Part shown: positions 11,464 to 62,398 of the stretch, piece by piece
How positions within the stretch are numbered: position 1 is the first letter of the stretch
Layout of the letters: every line of letters starts with the position of its first letter
Assembly (NCBI GenBank): GCA_051652045.1
Contig: JBOFTL010000514.1
Location: forward strand, 21,899 to 85,898
Reading direction: 5' to 3'
Source: Microcoleus sp.
Lineage (GTDB): Bacteria > Cyanobacteriota > Cyanobacteriia > Cyanobacteriales > Microcoleaceae
DNA: 64,000 bases
Position numbers and translations under genes: made by a program
Notes under the pieces: generated by a model
The model's database searches: none
Told to the model about the DNA's origin: nothing
The model's input: only the letters and a program-made list of their open reading frames with translations

Positions 11464-11670
11464 GTCACTGACCCCGCTCTAAAGAGACGGGGCTTGCAAA
11501 AAACCAATCTTGCGTAGTAGTGACTAGACCATGAGCCGATATCAGTTACGGACGTTCGGGTATTTCCCTAGCCCGAACCTCTCTAAGTCTTTTGGTTAAA
11601 GACGTAGCGTCATGGCTAGATATGCTGATATCGGTGGTCTTAGGGACGTACAACTTAGTAACGAGGGTTA
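11464..11670 (+). ncRNA. IsrB omegaRNA scaffold
   Basis: GTCAC..GTGAC P1; AGACCA/TGGTCT and CCCTAG/TTAGGG pseudoknot pairings; GATATCAG/CTGATATC stem. Confidence 0.75.
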
Positions 11671-11675
11671 TCCCC

Positions 11676-12857
11676 ATGCAGTTACGTGTTCCGGTTCAAA
11701 ATCCAGATGATTCACCTGCTATGCCAACTAAACCGAGCCGTGCCCGTCGTTGGGTTCGAGACGGCAAAGCAGTCGGCAAGTGGTCAGATGCGGGCATCTA
11801 CTACGTCCAGTTGGTTGCAGAGCCATCAGGACGGGAAGTTCAACCTGTAGTCGTTGGGGTAGACCCTGGTAAATCCTACTCAGGCATTGCCGTTCAGTCT
11901 GCCAAATTCACGCTATATCTTGCCCATTTGGTTCTTCCGTTTCAGCGGGTAAAAGAACGGTTGGGTACGGCTGTCATTAAAAACGGCAAGGTCATTAAAA
12001 ACGTGCGAGGTCGAGCGCTTCAGCGGAGGGTGAGACGGGGCAGACGCGTTAATCGCAAGATTGCTTTTAAGCTTCGTGCCCATCGTCAGAAGCGGTTCTC
12101 GAATCGCAATCAGAAAAAGGTTGCGCCATCGATCAAAGCATCGCGGCTGATGGAAATTCGCATTGTCAAAGAGCTTGCCGCTATTTTTCCGGTCAGTGCG
12201 ATTGTCTACGAGGTCGTTAAGGCTGATGTAGATAAGGCTTCCGGCAGGAAAGGCGCAAGGTCAGGTAAAGGATTTTCGCCTGTGATGGTCGGGCAGTATT
12301 GGGCTATTGAACAACTGTCTAAAATTGCGCCCGTCGCTAAGGTGATGGGCTGGCAAAAAGATGGAAATGGCACGAGCCAGATTAGAACCCGTCTGGGACT
12401 GGTCAAGGACAAACAGAATAAATCTAAGGCAACCCCTGAGACTCATGCAGTGGACGGGATCGCCCTGGCAGCCAGCCAGTTTATTCAATATCGCGTGACC
12501 CATAAGTTCGGTGAAGATTCGGGAGATTGGCACGGTTCGGTCGATGTGACTCCAGCGCCATTCAAAGTGATTACCCGACCTGAATATTTCCGTCGTGCTT
12601 TGCATTTCGATAACGCCGCTGTCGGTGGAGTTCGTAAGCGCAAAGGTGGAACAGTGACCCCGTTCGGGTATCGGGCTGGCGATAAGGTGCAGGTCAAGAC
12701 CAAAGGCGAAGTGCTGACAGGTTGGGTTGGTGGTTTCACCGATACCGATAAATCCCAAAAAGTCAGTGTCTATGACCAAAATTGGAAACGTCTTGGACAG
12801 TTTGGACTTAAGCAAATTCAACTTATTCGCAGGTCTAACAAATTATGCGTCGCTTAA
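11676..12857 (+). CDS. isrB: IsrB RNA-guided nickase (RRXRR/PLMP domain, RuvC, no HNH)
   Basis: PAMPTKPSRAR (PLMP), GVDPG, RRVRRGRR bridge helix, IVYEVV, HAVDG; no HNH insertion. Confidence 0.85.
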   Translation: MQLRVPVQNPDDSPAMPTKPSRARRWVRDGKAVGKWSDAGIYYVQLVAEPSGREVQPVVVGVDPGKSYSGIAVQSAKFTLYLAHLVLPFQRVKERLGTAVIKNGKVIKNVRGRALQRRVRRGRRVNRKIAFKLRAHRQKRFSNRNQKKVAPSIKASRLMEIRIVKELAAIFPVSAIVYEVVKADVDKASGRKGARSGKGFSPVMVGQYWAIEQLSKIAPVAKVMGWQKDGNGTSQIRTRLGLVKDKQNKSKATPETHAVDGIALAASQFIQYRVTHKFGEDSGDWHGSVDVTPAPFKVITRPEYFRRALHFDNAAVGGVRKRKGGTVTPFGYRAGDKVQVKTKGEVLTGWVGGFTDTDKSQKVSVYDQNWKRLGQFGLKQIQLIRRSNKLCVA

Positions 12858-24502: not shown

Positions 24503-26038
24503 CTAAAGAGGCAGGGATTCTTCAGAAAACAGCCTTAGCTGCTGACTAAATATCTGCTTTTCAGGCATTGCCTTAGATGTACAGTTCCTACTCTGATTCC
24601 GTTTGCCACGAATGGCGAAATCACTAATAGGCGTAACTTTGCGAGAGTCCCCCGCTAGGCACTTACGGTTGTGCGTCGGCTTTTTCTGTCTGTTGCTGAC
24701 AAACTTAAATCCTGCTCTTTTGTTGATCGTCCGGGATGCCTGAGTATCGGCATGGTCGATATGACCGCAAGCTTCGCAAATAAACTTCTCACCTTTGCGG
24801 TTGTCTTTGCTGCAATGCTTGCAAACTGAACATTCTTGACTTGAATATTTAGGGTCAACCGCAAGTACTGGCTTACCTGCCTTTGCGCCTAGCCAGCCAA
24901 TCTTTGCAAACAGTCCACCCCACGCAGCATCAGAAATAGAGCAATTCAGACCACGCTTTGCAGCCTGACCGTTAGGCAAGAAACGACCTTTGGAGCGCTT
25001 CGTTTTGCACCGAGACTTCATGCCCTTGACGTTCAAGTCTTCATGAACAATAGCGTCAGCAGTCTTAACGATTTTGTTTGCCGTTTCCCACTGGTACGCT
25101 TCCCTCTTGTCTGCAATGCGCTTATGGAGTTTAGCTACTTGCTGACCTGCTTTGCTGCGATTCTTTGAGCCTTTGACTTTGCGATTAACTCGTCTCTGCC
25201 TAATTCTTAGTTGGCGACGGGTTTTCTTATTGGTTGCGAACTTAGGATTCTCAACGAACGAACCATCAGACAAGCTGACAAGTTTATTGATACCTACGTC
25301 AATGCCCACCGACGACTGAATCGTGCTGTCTTCTACTCTGGGCAGGTCGTCGGAAGTATTGAGCAGTACGCTCATATACCAACCATCAGCTTCTTTCATC
25401 ACCGTTACGGTTCTGATATCAGCATCTAATGGGATTGCTCGACTGTCGAGATACCGCATATTCCCAATACCAGGCAGGTACACATGGGAGTAGCACTTCT
25501 TATGATTGGACGTTCGGTTAACCGTTAGCTTTGCAACTCCAGGTTTGTACTGAAAGCTGTTGAAATTAGCGATTTTTCTAAAGACAGGGAAACCCCGTTT
25601 ATGGCTAAAGAATCCATTGTACGCAGTATCAAGCTTGGCTAAATTGCCTTGCAATACATCCGCATTAATGCGACCGTACCAAGGATTTTCAGACCTTAGC
25701 TCAGTCGTGCGCTTACTTTGTACATCAGAAGCGCTACCCCAGACCAAAAGCTTTTCCTTCCCTTTGAGCTTTGTTAACTCAGCAGACATTACGCCATGCT
25801 TCACCACGGGGCAGGTTAAAGGACTGAACGCGCCAACTTCTAGGCGAGTATCAATTTCGCAATAAGCTTCATAGGCGTAGCAAACAGGTTGATCGTTAGC
25901 TTGATTGTTCGCCTCAAAACCTCTTTTACGCTCACCCAAGCAATAGTTCCGATGCTTCCGAAGCGTTACAAGCCACTCACCCATAAGAGCGCTTTGTCCC
26001 TTATTCGGTTGTAGCTTGTAGTTGAATCGGACTTGCAT
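24503..26038 (-). CDS. tnpB: TnpB RNA-guided nuclease
   Basis: VGIDVG, IVHEDL, SSQECSVC, CEACG..ADTQA. Confidence 0.92.
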   Translation of the reverse strand: MQVRFNYKLQPNKGQSALMGEWLVTLRKHRNYCLGERKRGFEANNQANDQPVCYAYEAYCEIDTRLEVGAFSPLTCPVVKHGVMSAELTKLKGKEKLLVWGSASDVQSKRTTELRSENPWYGRINADVLQGNLAKLDTAYNGFFSHKRGFPVFRKIANFNSFQYKPGVAKLTVNRTSNHKKCYSHVYLPGIGNMRYLDSRAIPLDADIRTVTVMKEADGWYMSVLLNTSDDLPRVEDSTIQSSVGIDVGINKLVSLSDGSFVENPKFATNKKTRRQLRIRQRRVNRKVKGSKNRSKAGQQVAKLHKRIADKREAYQWETANKIVKTADAIVHEDLNVKGMKSRCKTKRSKGRFLPNGQAAKRGLNCSISDAAWGGLFAKIGWLGAKAGKPVLAVDPKYSSQECSVCKHCSKDNRKGEKFICEACGHIDHADTQASRTINKRAGFKFVSNRQKKPTHNRKCLAGDSRKVTPISDFAIRGKRNQSRNCTSKAMPEKQIFSQQLRLFSEESLPL

Positions 26039-26104
26039 GATGTCGATAGCTTTGTTGATGTCTTGTATTAGTATACAATAGATTTGTAGAGTTTTCCCAA
26101 AGCC

Positions 26105-26509
26105 ATGAAAATAAAGTCGCCTGAATATCGGCATTACAATCATTCCGTGGGGATGTCAGTCGTGCATCTTGTCTGGATTCCCAAGCGTCGAAAAAAGGTT
26201 CTGATTGGGGGCGTTAGGAATCGGCTGATCCAGGTCTTTCAAGAGTTAGCGACTGAAAAAGAATGGTTGATTAGAGCGTTAGAGATTGCGCCTGACCATA
26301 TCCATCTGTTTGTAGAGATTCACCCCACTGATGCCATTAATCAAGTCGTCAAGGCATTTAAGGGACGGTCGTCCTATTTGTTGAGATCTGAATTTCCAGA
26401 ATTAAAAAAACTGCCGTCGCTCTGGACTAACAGCTATTTCTTTACGACCGCTGGGAACGTCTCAGCAGAAACCATTCAGAAGTACATCAACGACCCGCAT
26501 CACGGCTAA
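26105..26509 (+). CDS. tnpA: TnpA Y1 HUH transposase
   Basis: HLVWIPKRR, PDHIHL, LWTNSYF, IQKYI. Confidence 0.95.
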   Translation: MKIKSPEYRHYNHSVGMSVVHLVWIPKRRKKVLIGGVRNRLIQVFQELATEKEWLIRALEIAPDHIHLFVEIHPTDAINQVVKAFKGRSSYLLRSEFPELKKLPSLWTNSYFFTTAGNVSAETIQKYINDPHHG

Positions 26510-26842: not shown

Positions 26843-27262
26843 TCAGTCATCTTTGCCTTGAGACTGGATATAAGACTTAATGACATCCAAAGATGCTCCA
26901 CCGCCTGACACAGCACAATAACCACGCTTCCAGAAAACAGGTTTCCAGTAAAAAGGTTTTAATTCGGCTGTGTAACGTTTCCTGATTTCACGGCTGGTAA
27001 CGGTCTTCATTGTGTTTACCAAGGTCGATACAGCCACGTCAGGCGCAAAGTCTATCAGCAAATGGATGTGGTCTTTTAACTCTAAGTCTGCCTTCGCCTC
27101 TAACAGATAAGATCGGTTCTTTTCACATATCCCTCTGCATAGCTGAATGATGTCAGATTCTATCTGTTCGGTTAAGACTGGATGCCTATACTTTGTGACA
27201 AACACTATATGAATCTGAATGTTACAAACACTGTGAGCAAAGCTTCTAAGGCTTCTTGTCAT
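26843..27262 (-). CDS. tnpA: TnpA Y1 HUH transposase
   Basis: HIVFVTKYR, DHIHLL, FWKRGY, IKSYIQSQ. Confidence 0.95.
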   Translation of the reverse strand: MTRSLRSFAHSVCNIQIHIVFVTKYRHPVLTEQIESDIIQLCRGICEKNRSYLLEAKADLELKDHIHLLIDFAPDVAVSTLVNTMKTVTSREIRKRYTAELKPFYWKPVFWKRGYCAVSGGGASLDVIKSYIQSQGKDD

Positions 27263-27291
27263 TTCAAACACCATGCGCTACACTTATTATT

Positions 27292-28644
27292 ATGGCACAC
27301 AAAACAGCACCTAAAACTATCAGAACCGATAAATGGCGCATTGCTCCAAGCGGCGAACAGAAGCAGTATCTCCTGAACACCGTGAAAGAGTATCGTCGTC
27401 TTTGTCGTTTTTTGGTAACGGTGGTCTGCACTCATTGGAAGGCTTTGGGTGGGTTAAGCAGTGACAGCGTTGTACCAGCAGTAGAAAAGTTGATACACAG
27501 AACCGCACAAAATCCAGATCCCAAGTACCCGACAATTGATAAAGCGTTTCATAAATTCCCTAGCTATTTGCGCCGTGCTGCAATCATGTTTGCAGTTGGT
27601 CAAGTCAGTAGCTATATGACTCGATACTGGGATTGGCAATCCGGGCAGAGTCGTAATCGCAGAGACGCTAAACCGCCAATACTGAATTCTGATGCAGGTT
27701 GTTACCCGACTCTTTACAAAGGGCAGTGTTTCAAGTTGCAAGGTTTTGAGCAGGTTGAGATCAAGGTGTTTACTGGAACTGATTGGATTTGGATTACCAT
27801 GCCCATCTCTTCGGTTTGTGAGCGCCATTTGGTTTCAACCAATCAAATGAAGTCACCTTCACTCATCGTCAATGATAAGTCTTGTCATTTGTCAGTACCG
27901 TTTGAGTGCCATCCTGAAAAGGTGAAAGGGTCTGGCTTGGTTGTAGCGGTCGATTTGGGGATTAATACTACTGCCACTGTCTCAGTTGTGAGTCAAGACG
28001 GTACTGTAATCCATCGTGAATTCATTCACCCTGGAAGAGACATAGACCGTCGTGATAAGCGCCTAAAATCAGTTTCAATGAGAGCTAAAAAGACGATGGG
28101 TCGAGGCGGGAAACTGGGTCAAGGTTTTTGCAAAAACACCTATCGCAAGTGTCGCAACATCAATCAACAGATTGGGCATATCGTTTCTAAGCAAATCACT
28201 CAGATTGCTCAACATTACAGCGTGGATGCTGTTGTGTTTGAGAATCTAAAGGGGTGGAAGCCAAAAGGCGGCAAGAAACGATCTAACCTGAAGCAAAAGT
28301 TTCACGGTTGGCTCAAGAGCCTGATTGTTGAGCTAACCCAACGTAAATGGGCAGAGTTAGGGGGCAAGACGATTACGATCATTGCCGCTTACACTTCAAA
28401 GCTTGCCTATGATGGGTCGGGTCAAGTGAAGCGCGACAAAAAGAATTATGCATTAGCCACCTTTTCTAGCGGCAAAAAGTACAACTGTGATCTAAACGGT
28501 TCGTACAATATTGCCGCTAGAGGTTGGCAAAAACTCGATAGCCGAAAGGACTACGAGAAGCGTCCCAGCAAAAGTTCTGGACGCTTGCCTAGAAGCTGGG
28601 CTTGTCTTTGTGATCTGTGGTCTACCGACTCAAGATTAGCATAG
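27292..28644 (+). CDS. tnpB: TnpB nuclease (no Zn finger)
   Basis: VAVDLG, VVFENL, AYTSK, NCDLNG. Confidence 0.9.
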   Translation: MAHKTAPKTIRTDKWRIAPSGEQKQYLLNTVKEYRRLCRFLVTVVCTHWKALGGLSSDSVVPAVEKLIHRTAQNPDPKYPTIDKAFHKFPSYLRRAAIMFAVGQVSSYMTRYWDWQSGQSRNRRDAKPPILNSDAGCYPTLYKGQCFKLQGFEQVEIKVFTGTDWIWITMPISSVCERHLVSTNQMKSPSLIVNDKSCHLSVPFECHPEKVKGSGLVVAVDLGINTTATVSVVSQDGTVIHREFIHPGRDIDRRDKRLKSVSMRAKKTMGRGGKLGQGFCKNTYRKCRNINQQIGHIVSKQITQIAQHYSVDAVVFENLKGWKPKGGKKRSNLKQKFHGWLKSLIVELTQRKWAELGGKTITIIAAYTSKLAYDGSGQVKRDKKNYALATFSSGKKYNCDLNGSYNIAARGWQKLDSRKDYEKRPSKSSGRLPRSWACLCDLWSTDSRLA

Positions 28645-46598: not shown

Positions 46599-47921
46599 CT
46601 AAAGAGACTGAGATTCTGCTGACAGAACAGACTTTGGGAACCCCCAAAGTCTAATTCTCGCTACGGTCGTCAAAGACCGTCTACCCAGTCGGTTTAGGTC
46701 AATGCCTAACTTGCTGGCTACTTTTCTAAGGATGTTTGCAGCGCCATTAAGGTCTGCGTTCACCATTGATTTATCGGCTGACTGATACAAGCCCCTCTTA
46801 ACTCGTCGTCCTGATGCTTTCCACCCATCTGGCTTTTCGCCAAACTTAGGTAGGGAGTCGCCATCCAGAAAACTCGCTTTCGAGGTATACGCTTCCTCAG
46901 TCTCTTCAAATCTAATCCCGTGCAGGTCGCACAACTGTTTTAGTCGGTCTTTCAGTTTACCTAAAGGCATCTGAACAAACTTCTGATTATTAAGTCTGCC
47001 CATATTGGCATTGACTTTGAAGCCTTCATTCCACCCAATAACAAGTGTACCAATACTGTATTTTAGGCAGTGTTTAACAATCAACTTTGCAGCTTTGTTA
47101 ATCCCATCGCGCATCTGATGATTACGCTTGCGTGTCACACGGTCTAGCCAGCCATCCCAATAGGCGTGTTCTTTACCATCTTTGCGGGTAGATACTTTTT
47201 TGTTCCACAGTTGGTTCATAGCCTTCATTGATCGGGCATCAACTAACAAAGAATTACCTAAAGTATCCACACAAGCAGCAAGATTATCCGCAGTTCCAAG
47301 GTCGATCGATAGTGCTTGATTGATATCAAGTTGATGCGCTTGAGGGCTGACCTCGTAGGACATCTCCAGGTAAAAAGCACCATTCTTGGGAAGGATTGTG
47401 AATTCCTTGACTTTAGAAACATCTAAGTTTGTGGGCGCTGGTAAGAAAAATTCAGATATTCCAAACCAACGTTTTACGGTTAGACCAGTAGAAAATCTTA
47501 TCCGATCACCCTCAATAGTTGCACCGTACTTTGAACCTTTAGGGTATGAGACCTTGAATAGCTTAGAACCTTTCAGATATCCAGGAGGCTTAGGCTTAAA
47601 GTGCAACTGACCTTTAAAAAACAAATCTCTCAATCCTTTGAAAGATTTGAATGCCTCAGTCACAGACATTAAAGTCTGTTGTGCAGGACTTGAATGCAAA
47701 GATTGAGCCACTAAACTTTTCCCGACACTAGCCTCATAAATCAAATCAAATTTCCCAGCAAGCATCTTCCCTGTCTTAAAAAAAGTTTGCCGGGAAAAGT
47801 AGACCCCATTGTTGTAAAGCTTGCCTGACTGCTCACAAAGATATTGAAGAACAGCTTTTGTTTCTGGATCAGGAGATAGCAAGACTTGCTGGACTCCCAT
47901 TCTTTTCTTGACTTTGACCAT
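46599..47921 (-). CDS. tnpB: TnpB (rearranged RuvC-II type)
   Basis: SIDLG, VIGWN, EEAYTSK, NADLNGA. Confidence 0.9.
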   Translation of the reverse strand: MVKVKKRMGVQQVLLSPDPETKAVLQYLCEQSGKLYNNGVYFSRQTFFKTGKMLAGKFDLIYEASVGKSLVAQSLHSSPAQQTLMSVTEAFKSFKGLRDLFFKGQLHFKPKPPGYLKGSKLFKVSYPKGSKYGATIEGDRIRFSTGLTVKRWFGISEFFLPAPTNLDVSKVKEFTILPKNGAFYLEMSYEVSPQAHQLDINQALSIDLGTADNLAACVDTLGNSLLVDARSMKAMNQLWNKKVSTRKDGKEHAYWDGWLDRVTRKRNHQMRDGINKAAKLIVKHCLKYSIGTLVIGWNEGFKVNANMGRLNNQKFVQMPLGKLKDRLKQLCDLHGIRFEETEEAYTSKASFLDGDSLPKFGEKPDGWKASGRRVKRGLYQSADKSMVNADLNGAANILRKVASKLGIDLNRLGRRSLTTVARIRLWGFPKSVLSAESQSL

Positions 47922-48004
47922 CGTTTCGACCTGCGATGCAGTTGACTGTTGATAGTTTATCAACTATTCTAGTAGATGTCAAACAATTGATCGACTAAAT
48001 TATT

Positions 48005-54170: not shown

Positions 54171-54392
54171 ATGGCATCCGACTTAATTCGAGCATTAACA
54201 CCAGCGGCACTAGGAGTTATCGCCTGTGGGATGATGATTTTTGGAATGACATCCCGTGTTGATTCGAACAAATTCAACACGGCCTCAAACTTTGCCATCT
54301 TTTTGGCAGGCGGGGCAACCGGGGTGGCACAGGGCGGGCGATCGCAAACTCAGCAACGGCAGATGAGTGGAGAAGGAGGCGATCGCCCATGA
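54171..54392 (+). CDS. small two-TM protein (holin-like)
   Basis: 73 aa with two hydrophobic segments and a charged tail; AGGAG RBS. Confidence 0.5.
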   Translation: MASDLIRALTPAALGVIACGMMIFGMTSRVDSNKFNTASNFAIFLAGGATGVAQGGRSQTQQRQMSGEGGDRP

Positions 54393-54568
54393 TTTCCCCT
54401 GAAGCTTTCCGACTGCGGACAGAGCAAGAATTTGAATTGGCGAGGTTTGCGATCGCCTGCGCCGACTTATCCGATGGCGAATTGCAAGAATTGTTGTTGG
54501 ATACGGTGGCAAGATTGATGGATGCCGATAATCAAATCAGGAAGTTGATTTTGGGAGGGTTTCGATGA
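54389..54568 (+). CDS. nblA: NblA phycobilisome degradation adaptor
   Basis: 59 aa, not in the ORF track: MISPEAFRLRTEQEFELARF..LS..ELQELLL..LM..DNQIRKLI; AAGGAGG RBS; ATGA overlaps on both sides. Confidence 0.8.
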   Translation: MISPEAFRLRTEQEFELARFAIACADLSDGELQELLLDTVARLMDADNQIRKLILGGFR

Positions 54569-56030: not shown

Positions 56031-56767
56031 TGGTAAGATTGTTGCGGGTAGACGAGAATGGAAATCAACAGGAGGTCGATATTGCGATCGCCCAACAAAA
56101 CTCGTATACCAACTATTGGGTCTACGAGAAATTTACAGGCGTATTCAACCTCAGTGCAACCACAGCATTGGGGGCACTAAGACTGTTTTCCACGGTATCG
56201 GGGACAGGTGCAAGTAACACTTCCGACCTTGCTAACAACTCTAATGAGTTTGGAGGGATTGTCGCCTCCACAGGAACAACCGCGACAGGTTATGCTGGGC
56301 TGCTTTCGTCAACAGGAACGAACTCGGCGCAGAATATACGATTAGCCAATAGCGGCGGGCGCACATTTCTTTACGAATTGGATGTTAACTTTCCGCTGAT
56401 CTCGACCGTGACAGAAGTCTATGGTTGTGTCTTGGGTTTTGCCAACAATGTAAACGCCCCCACCGATGGCGCGTACATCTCGATGGATACGACTGGAAAT
56501 TTGATTGGCTTCACTCGGAATAACAGCGCCCAGTCTGTCAGTGGATCGATCGCAACTATCGCGTCTGGTGCTACACGAACAAACATCAAAATAGAACTAA
56601 GCACAACTAGGGCGCGGTTCGTTGTTAACGATGGAACCCCTGTAGAAATGACGACAAACCTGCCTCTAGGTCGAACCTTTGGGTATTGCGCAAGTATCGT
56701 CAAAGGCGTGGGCTTGACCGCAAGAACTTTACGTCTGTATGGCATGGGTGTGGGGGATAGACCATGA
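56030..56767 (+). CDS. beta-sandwich (lectin-like) virion protein
   Basis: G/T/S-rich; ARFVVNDG. Confidence 0.55.
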   Translation: MVRLLRVDENGNQQEVDIAIAQQNSYTNYWVYEKFTGVFNLSATTALGALRLFSTVSGTGASNTSDLANNSNEFGGIVASTGTTATGYAGLLSSTGTNSAQNIRLANSGGRTFLYELDVNFPLISTVTEVYGCVLGFANNVNAPTDGAYISMDTTGNLIGFTRNNSAQSVSGSIATIASGATRTNIKIELSTTRARFVVNDGTPVEMTTNLPLGRTFGYCASIVKGVGLTARTLRLYGMGVGDRP

Positions 56768-56804
56768 TTCACACTATAATAAAATCAACCTTGCGCGATC
56801 GCCC

Positions 56805-57338
56805 ATGTGTAAAATGCTAGCATCACTAAAAAACTGGACAAAAGATATCAGTCTTGAACTAAGACGAATATTCAATCGGTTGGAGATGTTTGATGACAGA
56901 ACAGCGCGATCGCACAAGCAAATCAACGATCGCTTACTCGAATTGGAGAAAATCATGGGTATTCTTGCAGAAAAAATCAAACAATTAGTTGCAGTCGAGA
57001 CAGCGGAAGGTGCAGTAATCAAAGAAGAATCCGCTAAGTTAAAGGCTGCACTTGAAGCAGCAAACACAAAAATCTCTGCACTTGAAGCAGAGAATCCAGC
57101 GCTCAAAGCGGAAATTGCAGCCCTCAAAGCTGACCTGGCAGATGCAGACATTGCTGCAAATGCGATCGCAGACATCAACCCCACTCCTGTATCTGATGGT
57201 ATTGTTACAGAAGTTGTGGAGAACCCCGCGATCGAAACACCTGCGATCGTCGAGGATGCTCCTGCCGTTGCTCCTGAAGTGATTCAGGAAGTACCAGTAG
57301 TCGAAGCCGCTGTTGATGCGATCGTCGCCGCCGAATAA
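56805..57338 (+). CDS. coiled-coil protein with acidic tail
   Basis: Heptad repeats; followed by a terminator. Confidence 0.6.
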   Translation: MCKMLASLKNWTKDISLELRRIFNRLEMFDDRTARSHKQINDRLLELEKIMGILAEKIKQLVAVETAEGAVIKEESAKLKAALEAANTKISALEAENPALKAEIAALKADLADADIAANAIADINPTPVSDGIVTEVVENPAIETPAIVEDAPAVAPEVIQEVPVVEAAVDAIVAAE

Positions 57339-57365: not shown

Positions 57366-57404
57366 AATTTCCCCATGGTTTCACACAGCCATGGGGAATT
57401 TTTT
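57366..57404 (+). terminator. intrinsic terminator
   Basis: TTCCCCATGG..CCATGGGGAA followed by a T-run. Confidence 0.7.
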
Positions 57405-57519
57405 GTGTTTGCAATTCCCGTGTTTTTGCCGAATACAGCGCGGACAAAAGCGGGCAATATAAAAAAGCGATCGCAGCAAAGGAGTTCCGCGATCGCTTCA
57501 TAAATTGAGGTAAACAAGC

Positions 57520-57792
57520 ATGAGATACTTGAGTGGATTTGTAGGAAGTGTAACACTGTTAATTGGTTGTGTCACGTTTGCGGGGGATGCGATCGCGGTT
57601 ACTTTCACGCCGCCCCGTGGCGATGCACCAAAAGAAACTGTGGGTGCTGGTTCGCGGATGTTTGATGATGAGCGGGGCAGTGGACGGATTAAGATTGATG
57701 CAAACGAGGATGCGCCGCGCCGTTGCCGTCGCCCCGGAGAAATTCGCCCTGACCTTCCCCGTTGTCCAGTAATCACTAGTCTGCCGGAGTAG
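57520..57792 (+). CDS. secreted peptide carrying ERGSGR (PatS/PatX/HetN-like motif)
   Basis: GAGG RBS; signal peptide ending A-I-A; FTPPRGDAPKETVGAGSR; ERGSGR at 57670-57687. Confidence 0.7.
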   Translation: MRYLSGFVGSVTLLIGCVTFAGDAIAVTFTPPRGDAPKETVGAGSRMFDDERGSGRIKIDANEDAPRRCRRPGEIRPDLPRCPVITSLPE

Positions 57793-57796
57793 TGCT

Positions 57797-58321
57797 ATGC
57801 TGGATTTTTCCCTGTTGAATCTGCCATTGCCGCAGACTGTGTTAGAGATTGAAGAACTACAGCGCATTGCCTATAGTGATGCGCTTACCGGATTGTTGAA
57901 TCGGCGATCGTTTGATTTGGTAATGCCGCGAGTCCCCCGCGGTCAAGTCCTGTTTGTGGATTTTGACCATTTGAAATTGCTCAACACAAAGTATGGGCAC
58001 TTAGTTGCTAATGCTTTATTGGGGCAAGTTGGCAGGGTTCTAATTGACCATTTGAAGCGATCGCAAGATACTGCCTTCCGCTTTGGTGGCGATGAACTTG
58101 CGGTGTTACTACCCGATGCATCAATTGATTACGCCAAACAATTGGCTGAATCTATCAGGCGTTGCGTTGAACACATCGAGTGTCCCGATGGTAGCCGCCC
58201 ATGTTCTGTTTCAATTGGCATTGCAACTATTAATGGTGATTGGGCGATCGCCTTTCAGCAGGCTAATCAAGCCATGTTCCTAGCAAAGGAACGCGGGCGG
58301 AATCAAGTTGCGATCGGTTGA
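57797..58321 (+). CDS. stand-alone GGDEF-domain protein (diguanylate cyclase family)
   Basis: DALTGLLNRR, FVDFD, YGH, RSQD I-site, RFGGDEL, SVSIG, AKERGRN. Confidence 0.92.
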   Translation: MLDFSLLNLPLPQTVLEIEELQRIAYSDALTGLLNRRSFDLVMPRVPRGQVLFVDFDHLKLLNTKYGHLVANALLGQVGRVLIDHLKRSQDTAFRFGGDELAVLLPDASIDYAKQLAESIRRCVEHIECPDGSRPCSVSIGIATINGDWAIAFQQANQAMFLAKERGRNQVAIG

Positions 58322-58322
58322 C

Positions 58323-58366
58323 ACAAAAAACAACCCCAGGTTGCGCAACCTGGGGTTGTTTTTTGT
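58323..58366. repeat. perfect 44-bp palindrome (probable bidirectional terminator)
   Basis: ACAAAAAACAACCCCAGGTTGC|GCAACCTGGGGTTGTTTTTTGT. Confidence 0.85.
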
Positions 58367-60640: not shown

Positions 60641-61048
60641 CTACCTTTTATGGTGCGGGTCGTTAATGTATCGCTCTATTGTATCGGCTGGAACGTTGCC
60701 AGCAGTAGAAAAGAAATAGCTATTAGTCCACAGTGAAGGCAATCGGGTTAAATGCGGAAACTCCTTCCTAAGCAAATACGCAGATCTGCCCTTAAACGCT
60801 TTGACAACTTGATTGATAGCATCTGTTGGGTGAATTTCAACAAAAAGATGCAAGTGGTCAGGCGCAATCTCTAAAGCTCGAATGTTCCAATTTCGTTCCT
60901 TTGCAATCTCGCCACAAATTTGAAACAACCTATCTCTGACCTCACCAATTAGCACGGGCTTACGTCGTTTTGGAATCCAAACCAAGTGAACCACACAAAG
61001 CCCTACAGAATGATTGTAATGTCGATACTCGTAAGAATTTTTTCTCAT
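60641..61048 (-). CDS. tnpA: TnpA Y1 HUH transposase
   Basis: HLVWIPKRR, PDHLHL, IERYI. Confidence 0.95.
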   Translation of the reverse strand: MRKNSYEYRHYNHSVGLCVVHLVWIPKRRKPVLIGEVRDRLFQICGEIAKERNWNIRALEIAPDHLHLFVEIHPTDAINQVVKAFKGRSAYLLRKEFPHLTRLPSLWTNSYFFSTAGNVPADTIERYINDPHHKR

Positions 61049-61117
61049 TCAGTTTGTCGTTCTTTCAGAATAATCTACAAATCTATTGTATAATACTAAG
61101 AGAGAACAACAGAGGAG

Positions 61118-62398
61118 GTGGTTGAATTGTTTGGCTGTCAGCAAGACCTAATTAAGGCAGACAAAGATACTCTGGCAATTATTGAGTATCTTTGTCACGA
61201 ATCGAATGACTTGTTTAATTGTGCGGTCTACTATGGTCGTCAAATTTGGTTTAAGACGGGCAGAGTCGTTACGGGGTATGACTTGGCGGTTGAGATGAAA
61301 ACTAATCGTCATTTCAACGCTGGGTATGCCTCTGCAATGCAGCAAACTTGTCTGAATGTTGGTGAAGCGTTTCAATCCTTTAAGAAGCTTCGCAGCCAAG
61401 TCTTAAAAGGAAAACTAGAACAATTTCCTAGAGTGCCGGGATACCGCAAGCCTAACGGATTGTTCACTGTCACTTATCCTAAGAAATGGTTGAAGCTCAA
61501 AGATGGATCAATCCGTTTCCCGTTGGGCAATCAAGTTAAAGCTTGGTTTGGAATCACTGACTTTTATTTGCCAATGCCAGTCAATTTAAGATGGGAAGAT
61601 ATCAAGGAGATTCGCATTCTTCCCCGCAATGGTGCGTTCTATGCTGAGTTTGTCTATCTAGTGAAGACACAGGCGCAATCTTTAGATCCGAGCAAAGCTC
61701 TAGGAATTGACCCCGGTTTGAATAACTGGTTGACCTGCGTGAGTAACGTAGGCACGGGCTTCATTGTTGACGGCAAGGAATTGAAGGCTTTGAATCAGTG
61801 GTACAACAAGCAACTGTCAACGATGAAGGACGGAAAGCCTCAAGGATTCTGGTCTAGAACCTTGGCGCAAATCACTGAGAAGCGGAATCGTCAGATGCGG
61901 GACGCAGTGAATAAAGCAGCCAGGATTGTGATTAATCATTGCCTTGAAAATGGCATTGGGTTAATCGTATTCGGGTGGAACAAAGGGCAGAAAAATTTGA
62001 TTAATCTCGGCGCAAAGACAAATCAAAAATTTGTGTCTGTGCCGACTGCCAGATTGAAGAAACGGATTGAACAACTGTGTGAGCAATACGGGATTCAGTT
62101 TGAGGAAACAGAGGAATCTTATACCTCAAAAGCAAGTTTTCTTGATAATGACGAGCTACCCAAATTCGGCGAAAAACCTGAACAGTGGCAGTCCAGTGGG
62201 AAGCGTGTAAAACGAGGTTTGTTCCGCACAGCAACGTTCGGCTATGTTAATGCAGATTGCAACGGAGCCGCGAATATTCTTCGCAAAGTAAAGGGAAAGT
62301 TCAAATTAGATTTGAGCGGACTTATTAGAGGTGTCTTGACAGCACCCAAGAGAATCAGGCTATGGTCTGAGGATCGGCAAGAATCCCCGTCTCTTTAG
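61118..62398 (+). CDS. tnpB: TnpB (rearranged RuvC-II type)
   Basis: GIDPG, VFGWN, EESYTSK, NADCNGA. Confidence 0.9.
   Translation: MVELFGCQQDLIKADKDTLAIIEYLCHESNDLFNCAVYYGRQIWFKTGRVVTGYDLAVEMKTNRHFNAGYASAMQQTCLNVGEAFQSFKKLRSQVLKGKLEQFPRVPGYRKPNGLFTVTYPKKWLKLKDGSIRFPLGNQVKAWFGITDFYLPMPVNLRWEDIKEIRILPRNGAFYAEFVYLVKTQAQSLDPSKALGIDPGLNNWLTCVSNVGTGFIVDGKELKALNQWYNKQLSTMKDGKPQGFWSRTLAQITEKRNRQMRDAVNKAARIVINHCLENGIGLIVFGWNKGQKNLINLGAKTNQKFVSVPTARLKKRIEQLCEQYGIQFEETEESYTSKASFLDNDELPKFGEKPEQWQSSGKRVKRGLFRTATFGYVNADCNGAANILRKVKGKFKLDLSGLIRGVLTAPKRIRLWSEDRQESPSL

Follow-up and report, generated by a model that had tools for sequence, protein, structure and literature searches.

HetR and its RG(S/T)GR-containing inhibitors form the textbook bacterial reaction-diffusion patterning system. 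In a contig assigned to a Microcoleus sp. bin, a preliminary description made from the DNA letters alone had picked out a phage gene encoding a leader peptide and the hexapeptide ERGSGR, and had read it as a mimic of the inhibitors PatS and PatX. The question raised by this locus is whether a cyanophage exports a peptide directed at HetR or carries the motif by chance. ERGSGR is known as PatS-6 (PMC7476756), and as free peptides ERGSGR and HRGTGR both bind to HetR and keep it from binding DNA (PMC7476756, PMC12756182). An internal RGSGR, as in HetN, is still active on HetR (PMC7476756), and PatX has to be exported via Sec and cut by PatP, a periplasmic peptidase, before it can act (PMC12756182), so the mechanism put forward in the preliminary description is plausible.

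The gene, here called ORF90, encodes a small protein of 90 residues at positions 57520..57792 (stop included) on the forward strand of the window, the 64,000-nucleotide stretch of DNA that was analysed. Its ATG at 57520 is the earliest possible start of the frame, and the ribosome-binding site claimed for it was found as GAGG, 9 nt 5' of the ATG (57508..57511, +). The N-terminus has the n-, h- and c-regions of an export-type leader, with a basic residue (R2), about 20 hydrophobic residues and A-I-A ahead of V27, and it is homologous to the leaders of DUF928 proteins; the proposed signal peptide (residues 1-26, 57520..57597, +) would thus be cleaved between A-I-A and V. It is followed by a single DUF928-type N-terminal module, VTFTPPRGDAPKETVGAGSR (residues 27-46, 57598..57657, +), recognized by both a module HMM and a DUF928 profile. 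The motif ERGSGR lies exactly where it had been placed (residues 51-56, 57670-57687), within the wider string DDERGSGR (residues 49-56, 57664..57687, +) that falls at positions 5-13 of the PatS model, below its cut-off. The remaining 34 residues (57-90, 57688..57789, +) make up a tail that is rich in Arg and Pro, contains two Cys and has no relative that we could detect. ORF90 has 11 Arg and 10 Gly. With 9 Pro among the 90 residues, the 'Pro-rich stretch' described earlier was overstated; the Pro residues of the linker belong to the DUF928 module, where they read FTPPRGDAP.

Codon usage, scored as log-odds trained on 22 supported phage genes, favours translation of both halves of ORF90. The whole frame reached 0.122 bits/codon, the highest of the six frames, which corresponds to the 15th percentile among true-frame 90-codon windows and is attained by 0.9% of stop-free off-frame windows. 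The unique C-terminal half scored 0.152 bits/codon, a value that 6% of stop-free off-frame windows also attain. Thus, ORF90 is apparently a real small gene.

The setting of ORF90 is a phage genome, as the preliminary description had held. The window corresponds to C514:21899-85898, where C514 is the longest contig of the bin (89,575 bp). Because the ends of this contig repeat over 139 bp, it represents a circular, complete phage genome of about 89.4 kb rather than an integrated prophage. Its products include primase, helicase, terminase, portal protein, head protease, tape-measure and tip proteins, endolysin and KilA-N. It also has a 59-aa gene at 54389-54565 (+) that matches nblA, for phycobilisome degradation, with 31 bits in Pfam (cut-off 25), and this confirms a cyanobacterial host. 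The terminases of related phages are 46-49% identical to that of C514; the ORF90 region is not shared, as the genes neighbouring ORF90 are absent from these phages, and we found no DNA similarity between C514 and known phages. The genome further contains IS200/IS605-type genes (TnpA/TnpB-like) at six places (11592-12857, 24503-26143, 27256-28644, 46599-47963 and 60641-62398 of the window, and C514:18001-19287), a load that is unusual for a phage. The products of those compared with the bin share 60-75% protein identity with its copies, and the elements are at most 75% identical to those of any sampled genome.

The only homology of ORF90 with statistical support concerns its N-terminal half. 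In 300 genomes of the order, matches to ORF90 cover residues 9-47 only and always lie at the N-termini of 245-360-aa ORFs, which are DUF928 proteins; ORF90-like modules occur in 36 of these other genomes (37 of 301 with the bin). A profile of 14 DUF928 proteins aligns residues 4-47 of ORF90 to the leader and first module with 28 bits, in line with the likeness of FTPP..G.P..T.GAGSR to DUF928 N-termini that had been pointed out before. The custom DUF928 profile aligns with ORF90 over positions 6-52 only, which are leader and module, and an HMM of the module alone gives ORF90 20.5 bits as the single significant match among the 89,484 six-frame segments of the bin. In DUF928 proteins the consensus N-terminus is A-x-A followed by the module (V/I)TFxPPxxxxPxxTxGGxSR, and this arrangement supports signal peptidase I cleavage after A26 of ORF90.

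ORF90 therefore carries the DUF928 leader and the (V/I)TFxPP...GGxSR module but not the core domain: the core (PF06051) gave no Pfam match at E <= 10 (cut-off 26 bits). Residues 4-47 are homologous to the signal peptide and first module of the DUF928 proteins of filamentous cyanobacteria, whereas the core of about 180 aa and the operon context of TPS, CHAT and CHASE2 genes are missing. A frameshifted core was excluded, as the other two forward frames are not DUF928-like and a GGDEF gene begins 4 nt downstream. Two further candidates for kinship were also rejected. The secreted bin protein P0002 had seemed to share the design of a DUF928 module plus RGSGR, but the module HMM misses it and ORF90 does not align with its family; the string DAIA as a link is merely the HIP1 palindrome read in frame.

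The DUF928 proteins themselves have attracted little attention. We found no published function for them, and one paper mentions DUF928, in passing. Some DUF928 proteins carry as many as six tandem copies of the 22-aa N-terminal module (L013, L025). DUF928 genes are clustered with those of a TPS-domain exoprotein, a TPR-CHAT protease and a CHASE2 sensor kinase (L070, L071, L072), an operon context conserved between two genomes and the bin. The cluster and the repeated modules suggest an unstudied extracytoplasmic peptide-signalling system.

The leader can also be read as that of a phage lipoprotein, either an outer-membrane spanin or a superinfection-exclusion protein, cut between LLIG and Cys17 to release an Rz1-like, Pro-rich mature part with two Cys. 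By eye, residues 7-17 fit the PROSITE rule, with R2 in front, six uncharged positions before LLIG and then Cys17, and an endolysin gene lies 2 kb downstream. However, LLIGC (residues 13-17) reads LIIGS in the closest homologous leader (L073), and all homologues run on to the A-x-A site followed by (V/I)TF. Nor does an inner-membrane spanin partner adjoin ORF90, and a GGDEF gene, an antisense KilA-N gene and a 283-aa gene stand between it and the endolysin. We consider a lipoprotein very improbable.

ORF90 is set apart from its surroundings together with one other gene. Upstream, a gene of the coiled-coil/tail-fibre region (56739-57338) is ended by a strong intrinsic terminator with a 12-bp stem and a T-run (57369..57398, +), which isolates the ORF90 unit. 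Downstream, a sensor-less gene of the GGDEF (diguanylate cyclase) type (57797..58321, +; Pfam GGDEF, 1.1e-28) starts 4 nt past the stop of ORF90, has a GGAG site located within the 3' end of ORF90, and is followed by a bidirectional terminator hairpin (58330..58359, acting on both strands) that closes the two-gene unit. Given the 4-nt junction and the position of the GGAG site, ORF90 and the GGDEF gene are probably co-transcribed, and with terminators on both sides the pair makes up an accessory unit of its own. Upstream of ORF90 we found neither a canonical -35/-10 pair nor an NtcA site or a DIF1 motif, and no viral relatives of the GGDEF gene were found.

This arrangement bears on the idea that ORF90 is a decaying remnant: a piece from the 5' end of a DUF928 gene that the phage acquired, that was truncated when the GGDEF gene arrived and that now runs on into unrelated sequence. 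Such a remnant would have no function of its own and may serve only as a leader ORF for GGDEF. The missing DUF928 core and the lack of relatives fit such a history, as do the several IS200/IS605 elements of a phage that has clearly been rearranged and the two antisense ORFs of similar length that overlap ORF90. On the other hand, the frame is intact and has a good ribosome-binding site, the C-terminal half is phage-like in codon usage at the value given above, and the tight junction with GGDEF between flanking terminators looks like a maintained operon. A remnant thus seems rather improbable.

We then compared ORF90 with the known carriers of the motif. Its ERGSGR is identical to PatS-6, and DERGSGR extends the identity to seven residues of the C-terminus of PatS, although this longer identity is an after-the-fact observation. 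By profile, ORF90 is not a member of either family. The PatX model NF047413 gave no match at E <= 10 (curated cut-off 30 bits), and the PatS model NF047415 gave 14.6 bits over residues 48-56 (cut-off 30), the best match to this model in the whole bin and still below threshold. A custom profile of 16 PatX proteins, which recovered both held-out PatX proteins of the bin with 70 and 43 bits, gave ORF90 5.5 bits for the motif only (rank 223 of 89,484 segments). When ORF90 is aligned with 15 PatX proteins, its motif falls in the motif column, and in a protein-atlas search for look-alikes a PatX cluster came up at rank 11 with a score of 0.84, a weak lead.

The likeness to PatX is one of layout. The 19 PatX genes that we collected from the order encode a signal peptide, a linker of 25-40 aa, (P)[H/E]RGSGR and a tail of 0-25 aa, and those of the bin's own genus use PERGSGR. 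With PatX (Asl2332 of Nostoc/Anabaena PCC 7120; NF047413), ORF90 shares a small size, a putative Sec-type leader at the N-terminus, a 24-40 aa linker, [H/E]RG(S/T)GR at about residue 50-60 and the optional tail, and the mechanism proposed for it would likewise involve export, periplasmic cleavage and inhibition of HetR. The motif of ORF90 thus follows a linker near the C-terminus as in PatX, but the 34-aa tail exceeds the PatX range. The two also differ in that there is no homology beyond the motif, the leader and linker of ORF90 being DUF928-derived; in that D-E precedes the motif where PatX has P-H or P-E; and in that ORF90 lies on a phage beside a GGDEF gene and not beside hetR. From PatS (13-17 aa, ending in RGSGR; NF047415), which is cytoplasmic and has no signal peptide, ORF90 is set apart by its 90 residues, its leader and its internal motif. 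HetN is a short-chain dehydrogenase-like protein of about 287 aa; like ORF90 it has an internal RGSGR, but ORF90 lacks the dehydrogenase-like domain. ORF90 therefore resembles PatX in layout and, judged from sequence, in possible mechanism, and the mimic proposed at the outset stands as far as an export-type leader, a motif identical to PatS-6 and PatX-like spacing on a phage are concerned; it does not stand as a homologue of PatX or PatS.

Several other carriers of the motif were met during these searches. The bin has two PatX genes: G000:C882:4169-4399 and G000:C790:2638-2835. One lies directly upstream of hetR and encodes HRGSGR with a tail of 17 aa; the other terminates in a variant motif, ERGGGR. 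Genome G038 encodes a PatX-type protein of 201 aa that contains RGSGR as 11 tandem cassettes (L064:1501-2103, +) and resembles a polyprotein precursor. A 168-aa secreted Pro/Cys-rich protein of the bin that matched no Pfam or NCBIfam family (L030:5681-6184, -, on G000:C45) ends in YRGSGR; the motif is kept in 3 of the 5 members of its family, which comprises this protein and four relatives, and the family possibly represents another class of exported proteins with RGSGR. At G000:C843:1222-1239 (-), a possible 20-aa ORF with CQQERGSGR followed by FTK looks PatS-like, with 12.7 bits, far under the PatS cut-off.

Whether the motif could have arisen by chance depends on the scale at which it is counted. 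When the mature part of ORF90 was shuffled, RGSGR appeared in 6 of 10,000 trials (P = 6e-4). The six-frame translation of the phage should contain any given order of R, G, S, G and R 0.47 times on average; in that of the bin, RGSGR occurs 13 times against a permutation mean of 16, with no enrichment. RGSGR is thus unlikely within ORF90 yet unremarkable genome-wide.

Relatives of ORF90 would show whether the motif is conserved, and the cyanophage and prophage homologues that the preliminary description had wished to compare were searched for with only ORF90 itself returned. A word-indexed search of 5.8 billion proteins gave no homologue, and an exhaustive HMMER search of 1.84 billion representatives gave only repeat proteins of unrelated organisms, whose scores are summed chance similarity. 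Searches of IMG/VR, metagenome contigs and genome contigs, and a tblastn search of GenBank phages, were likewise without a homologue, and no full-length relative was found in 300 genomes of the order or 300 of the phylum. As no homologue was found, nothing points to selection on the motif. As for PatX-like genes in other viruses, a narrow pattern gave 52 matches in IMG/VR, none of them PatX-like, and a poly-RGSGR PatX query gave nothing relevant in GenBank phages. In the literature we found no viral PatS, PatX or viral inhibitor of the HetR system, which agrees with the earlier statement that none had been described.

Another explanation is that RGSGR arose by chance in a tail rich in Arg and Gly, and that the functional part of an exported ORF90 is the DUF928-type leader and module. 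ORF90 would then interfere with or mimic the host DUF928 system, in which modules are repeated like peptide cassettes; for this step we offer a mechanism by pure inference. The statistically supported homology of residues 4-47, the conserved DUF928 operon context and the tandem modules of L013 and L025 all fit this explanation. The Arg and Gly content of ORF90 also raises the chance rate of the motif, and very many windows were read, so some ERGSGR strings are expected by chance. Against it stand the rarity of RGSGR in shuffles of the mature part, a flank that extends the identity with PatS to seven residues, a spacing equal to that of PatX, and the fact that DUF928 has no known function. On balance we regard a chance motif as unlikely, but as an explanation that has to be taken seriously.

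An inhibitor of HetR presupposes a host with hetR. The bin has hetR with PatX beside it, and its HetR is about 80% identical to that of Anabaena, with R223 kept. The earlier expectation that the host has hetR holds for the bin, but the phage genome is free and circular, and its link to the bin is doubtful. HIP1 (GCGATCGC) occurs at 2.94/kb on C514 versus 0.62-0.74/kb in the bin's genus, about four times the density of the bin, and the maximum among 151 sampled genomes of the order (about 2.0/kb) is below the value of C514. The GC content is 48.2% for C514 versus 45.2% for the bin, no CRISPR spacer matched the phage, and no recently exchanged genes common to the two were found. Palindrome avoidance overlaps partially (Spearman 0.53): C514 avoids GGCC, GGWCC, CYCGRG, TCCGGA and GAGCTC sites, which the bin tolerates, whereas AGTACT and ATGCAT are avoided by the bin and kept by C514. 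The DUF928 module of ORF90 also resembles the modules of other families and not those of the bin. Because HIP1 density, restriction-site avoidance and module type all differ from the bin, the bin is unproven as the host, and the host of C514 is probably not of the bin's genus.

Site counts on C514 are 10 for GGCC, 1 for GGWCC, 4 for CYCGRG and 1 for TCCGGA, with TCCGGA occurring 0 times in the window against 14 expected, and 13 palindromic hexamers are absent from the contig. This extreme avoidance could serve as a fingerprint of the restriction-modification systems of the true host. As to hetR, in a phylum-wide sample of 301 genomes ORF90-like modules are limited to the bin's order, and the families that have them are all hetR-bearing (f12, 16/17 genomes; f20, 11/11; f5, 14/14; f7, 17/17); the nearest phage relatives are found in genomes without hetR. 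It is likely, if unproven, that the C514 phage has a hetR-positive host.

Taken together, we tentatively favour, at somewhat less than an even chance, ORF90 as an exported HetR-inhibitor pro-peptide, an accessory phage gene (moron) co-transcribed with GGDEF. The locus has an ORF with a coding signal in a phage genome, a DUF928-derived leader, the exact motif and PatX-like spacing. From these we infer export, processing, uptake, binding to HetR in the true host and a benefit to the phage. In such a scheme, the phage would have captured the leader and first module of a cyanobacterial DUF928 gene, and this captured part would carry the product to the periplasm via Sec. There, host peptidases would cut out a peptide with (D)ERGSGR at its end or inside it. 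By analogy with PatX-derived peptides, this product would travel along the filament, be taken up by cells and bind HetR at its hood domain. HetR-dependent differentiation would be blocked around the infected cell, either of heterocysts or, in non-heterocystous hosts, of necridia/filament fragmentation. ORF90 would then work like PatX by convergence, outside the PatX family. The fuller claim, that a cyanophage exports a morphogen mimic which is built of a captured DUF928 leader and a PatS-identical (D)ERGSGR cassette, is co-expressed with a diguanylate cyclase and shuts down HetR-dependent differentiation in the infected filament, is possible but slightly less probable still.

Several features speak against an inhibitor. 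The motif is internal, and behind it lies a tail of 34 aa that exceeds every PatX tail seen; the peptide would have to be cut on both sides. No Pro directly precedes the motif, unlike in PatX. The PatX and PatS profiles recognize nothing of ORF90 beyond the motif. The lack of homologues, of an upstream NtcA site or DIF1 motif, of RGSGR enrichment, of a proven host and of PatX-like genes in the viral collections searched also counts against it. The further suggestion that the peptide is an inter-cell lysis/lysogeny signal found no support. ORF90 does recall the arbitrium pro-peptides of the AimP type in being a small phage ORF with a signal peptide and a product that would be cut to a short re-imported peptide; however, AimP acts on a phage receptor for lysogeny, while ORF90 would presumably target a regulator of the host, and the phage has no evident receptor gene.

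ORF90 has no relatives in which conservation of the motif could be compared, and use of the peptide by the phage is only a little more probable than a chance match. If the motif is a chance string, the locus is an ordinary orphan moron. If ORF90 does act on HetR, viruses would manipulate cell fate across a bacterial filament by hijacking a multicellular patterning signal, and ORF90 would provide a natural minimal tool for studying the export, processing and uptake of RGSGR peptides. The conserved and unstudied DUF928 leader and module would in that case be suggested as a portable cassette for export or processing.
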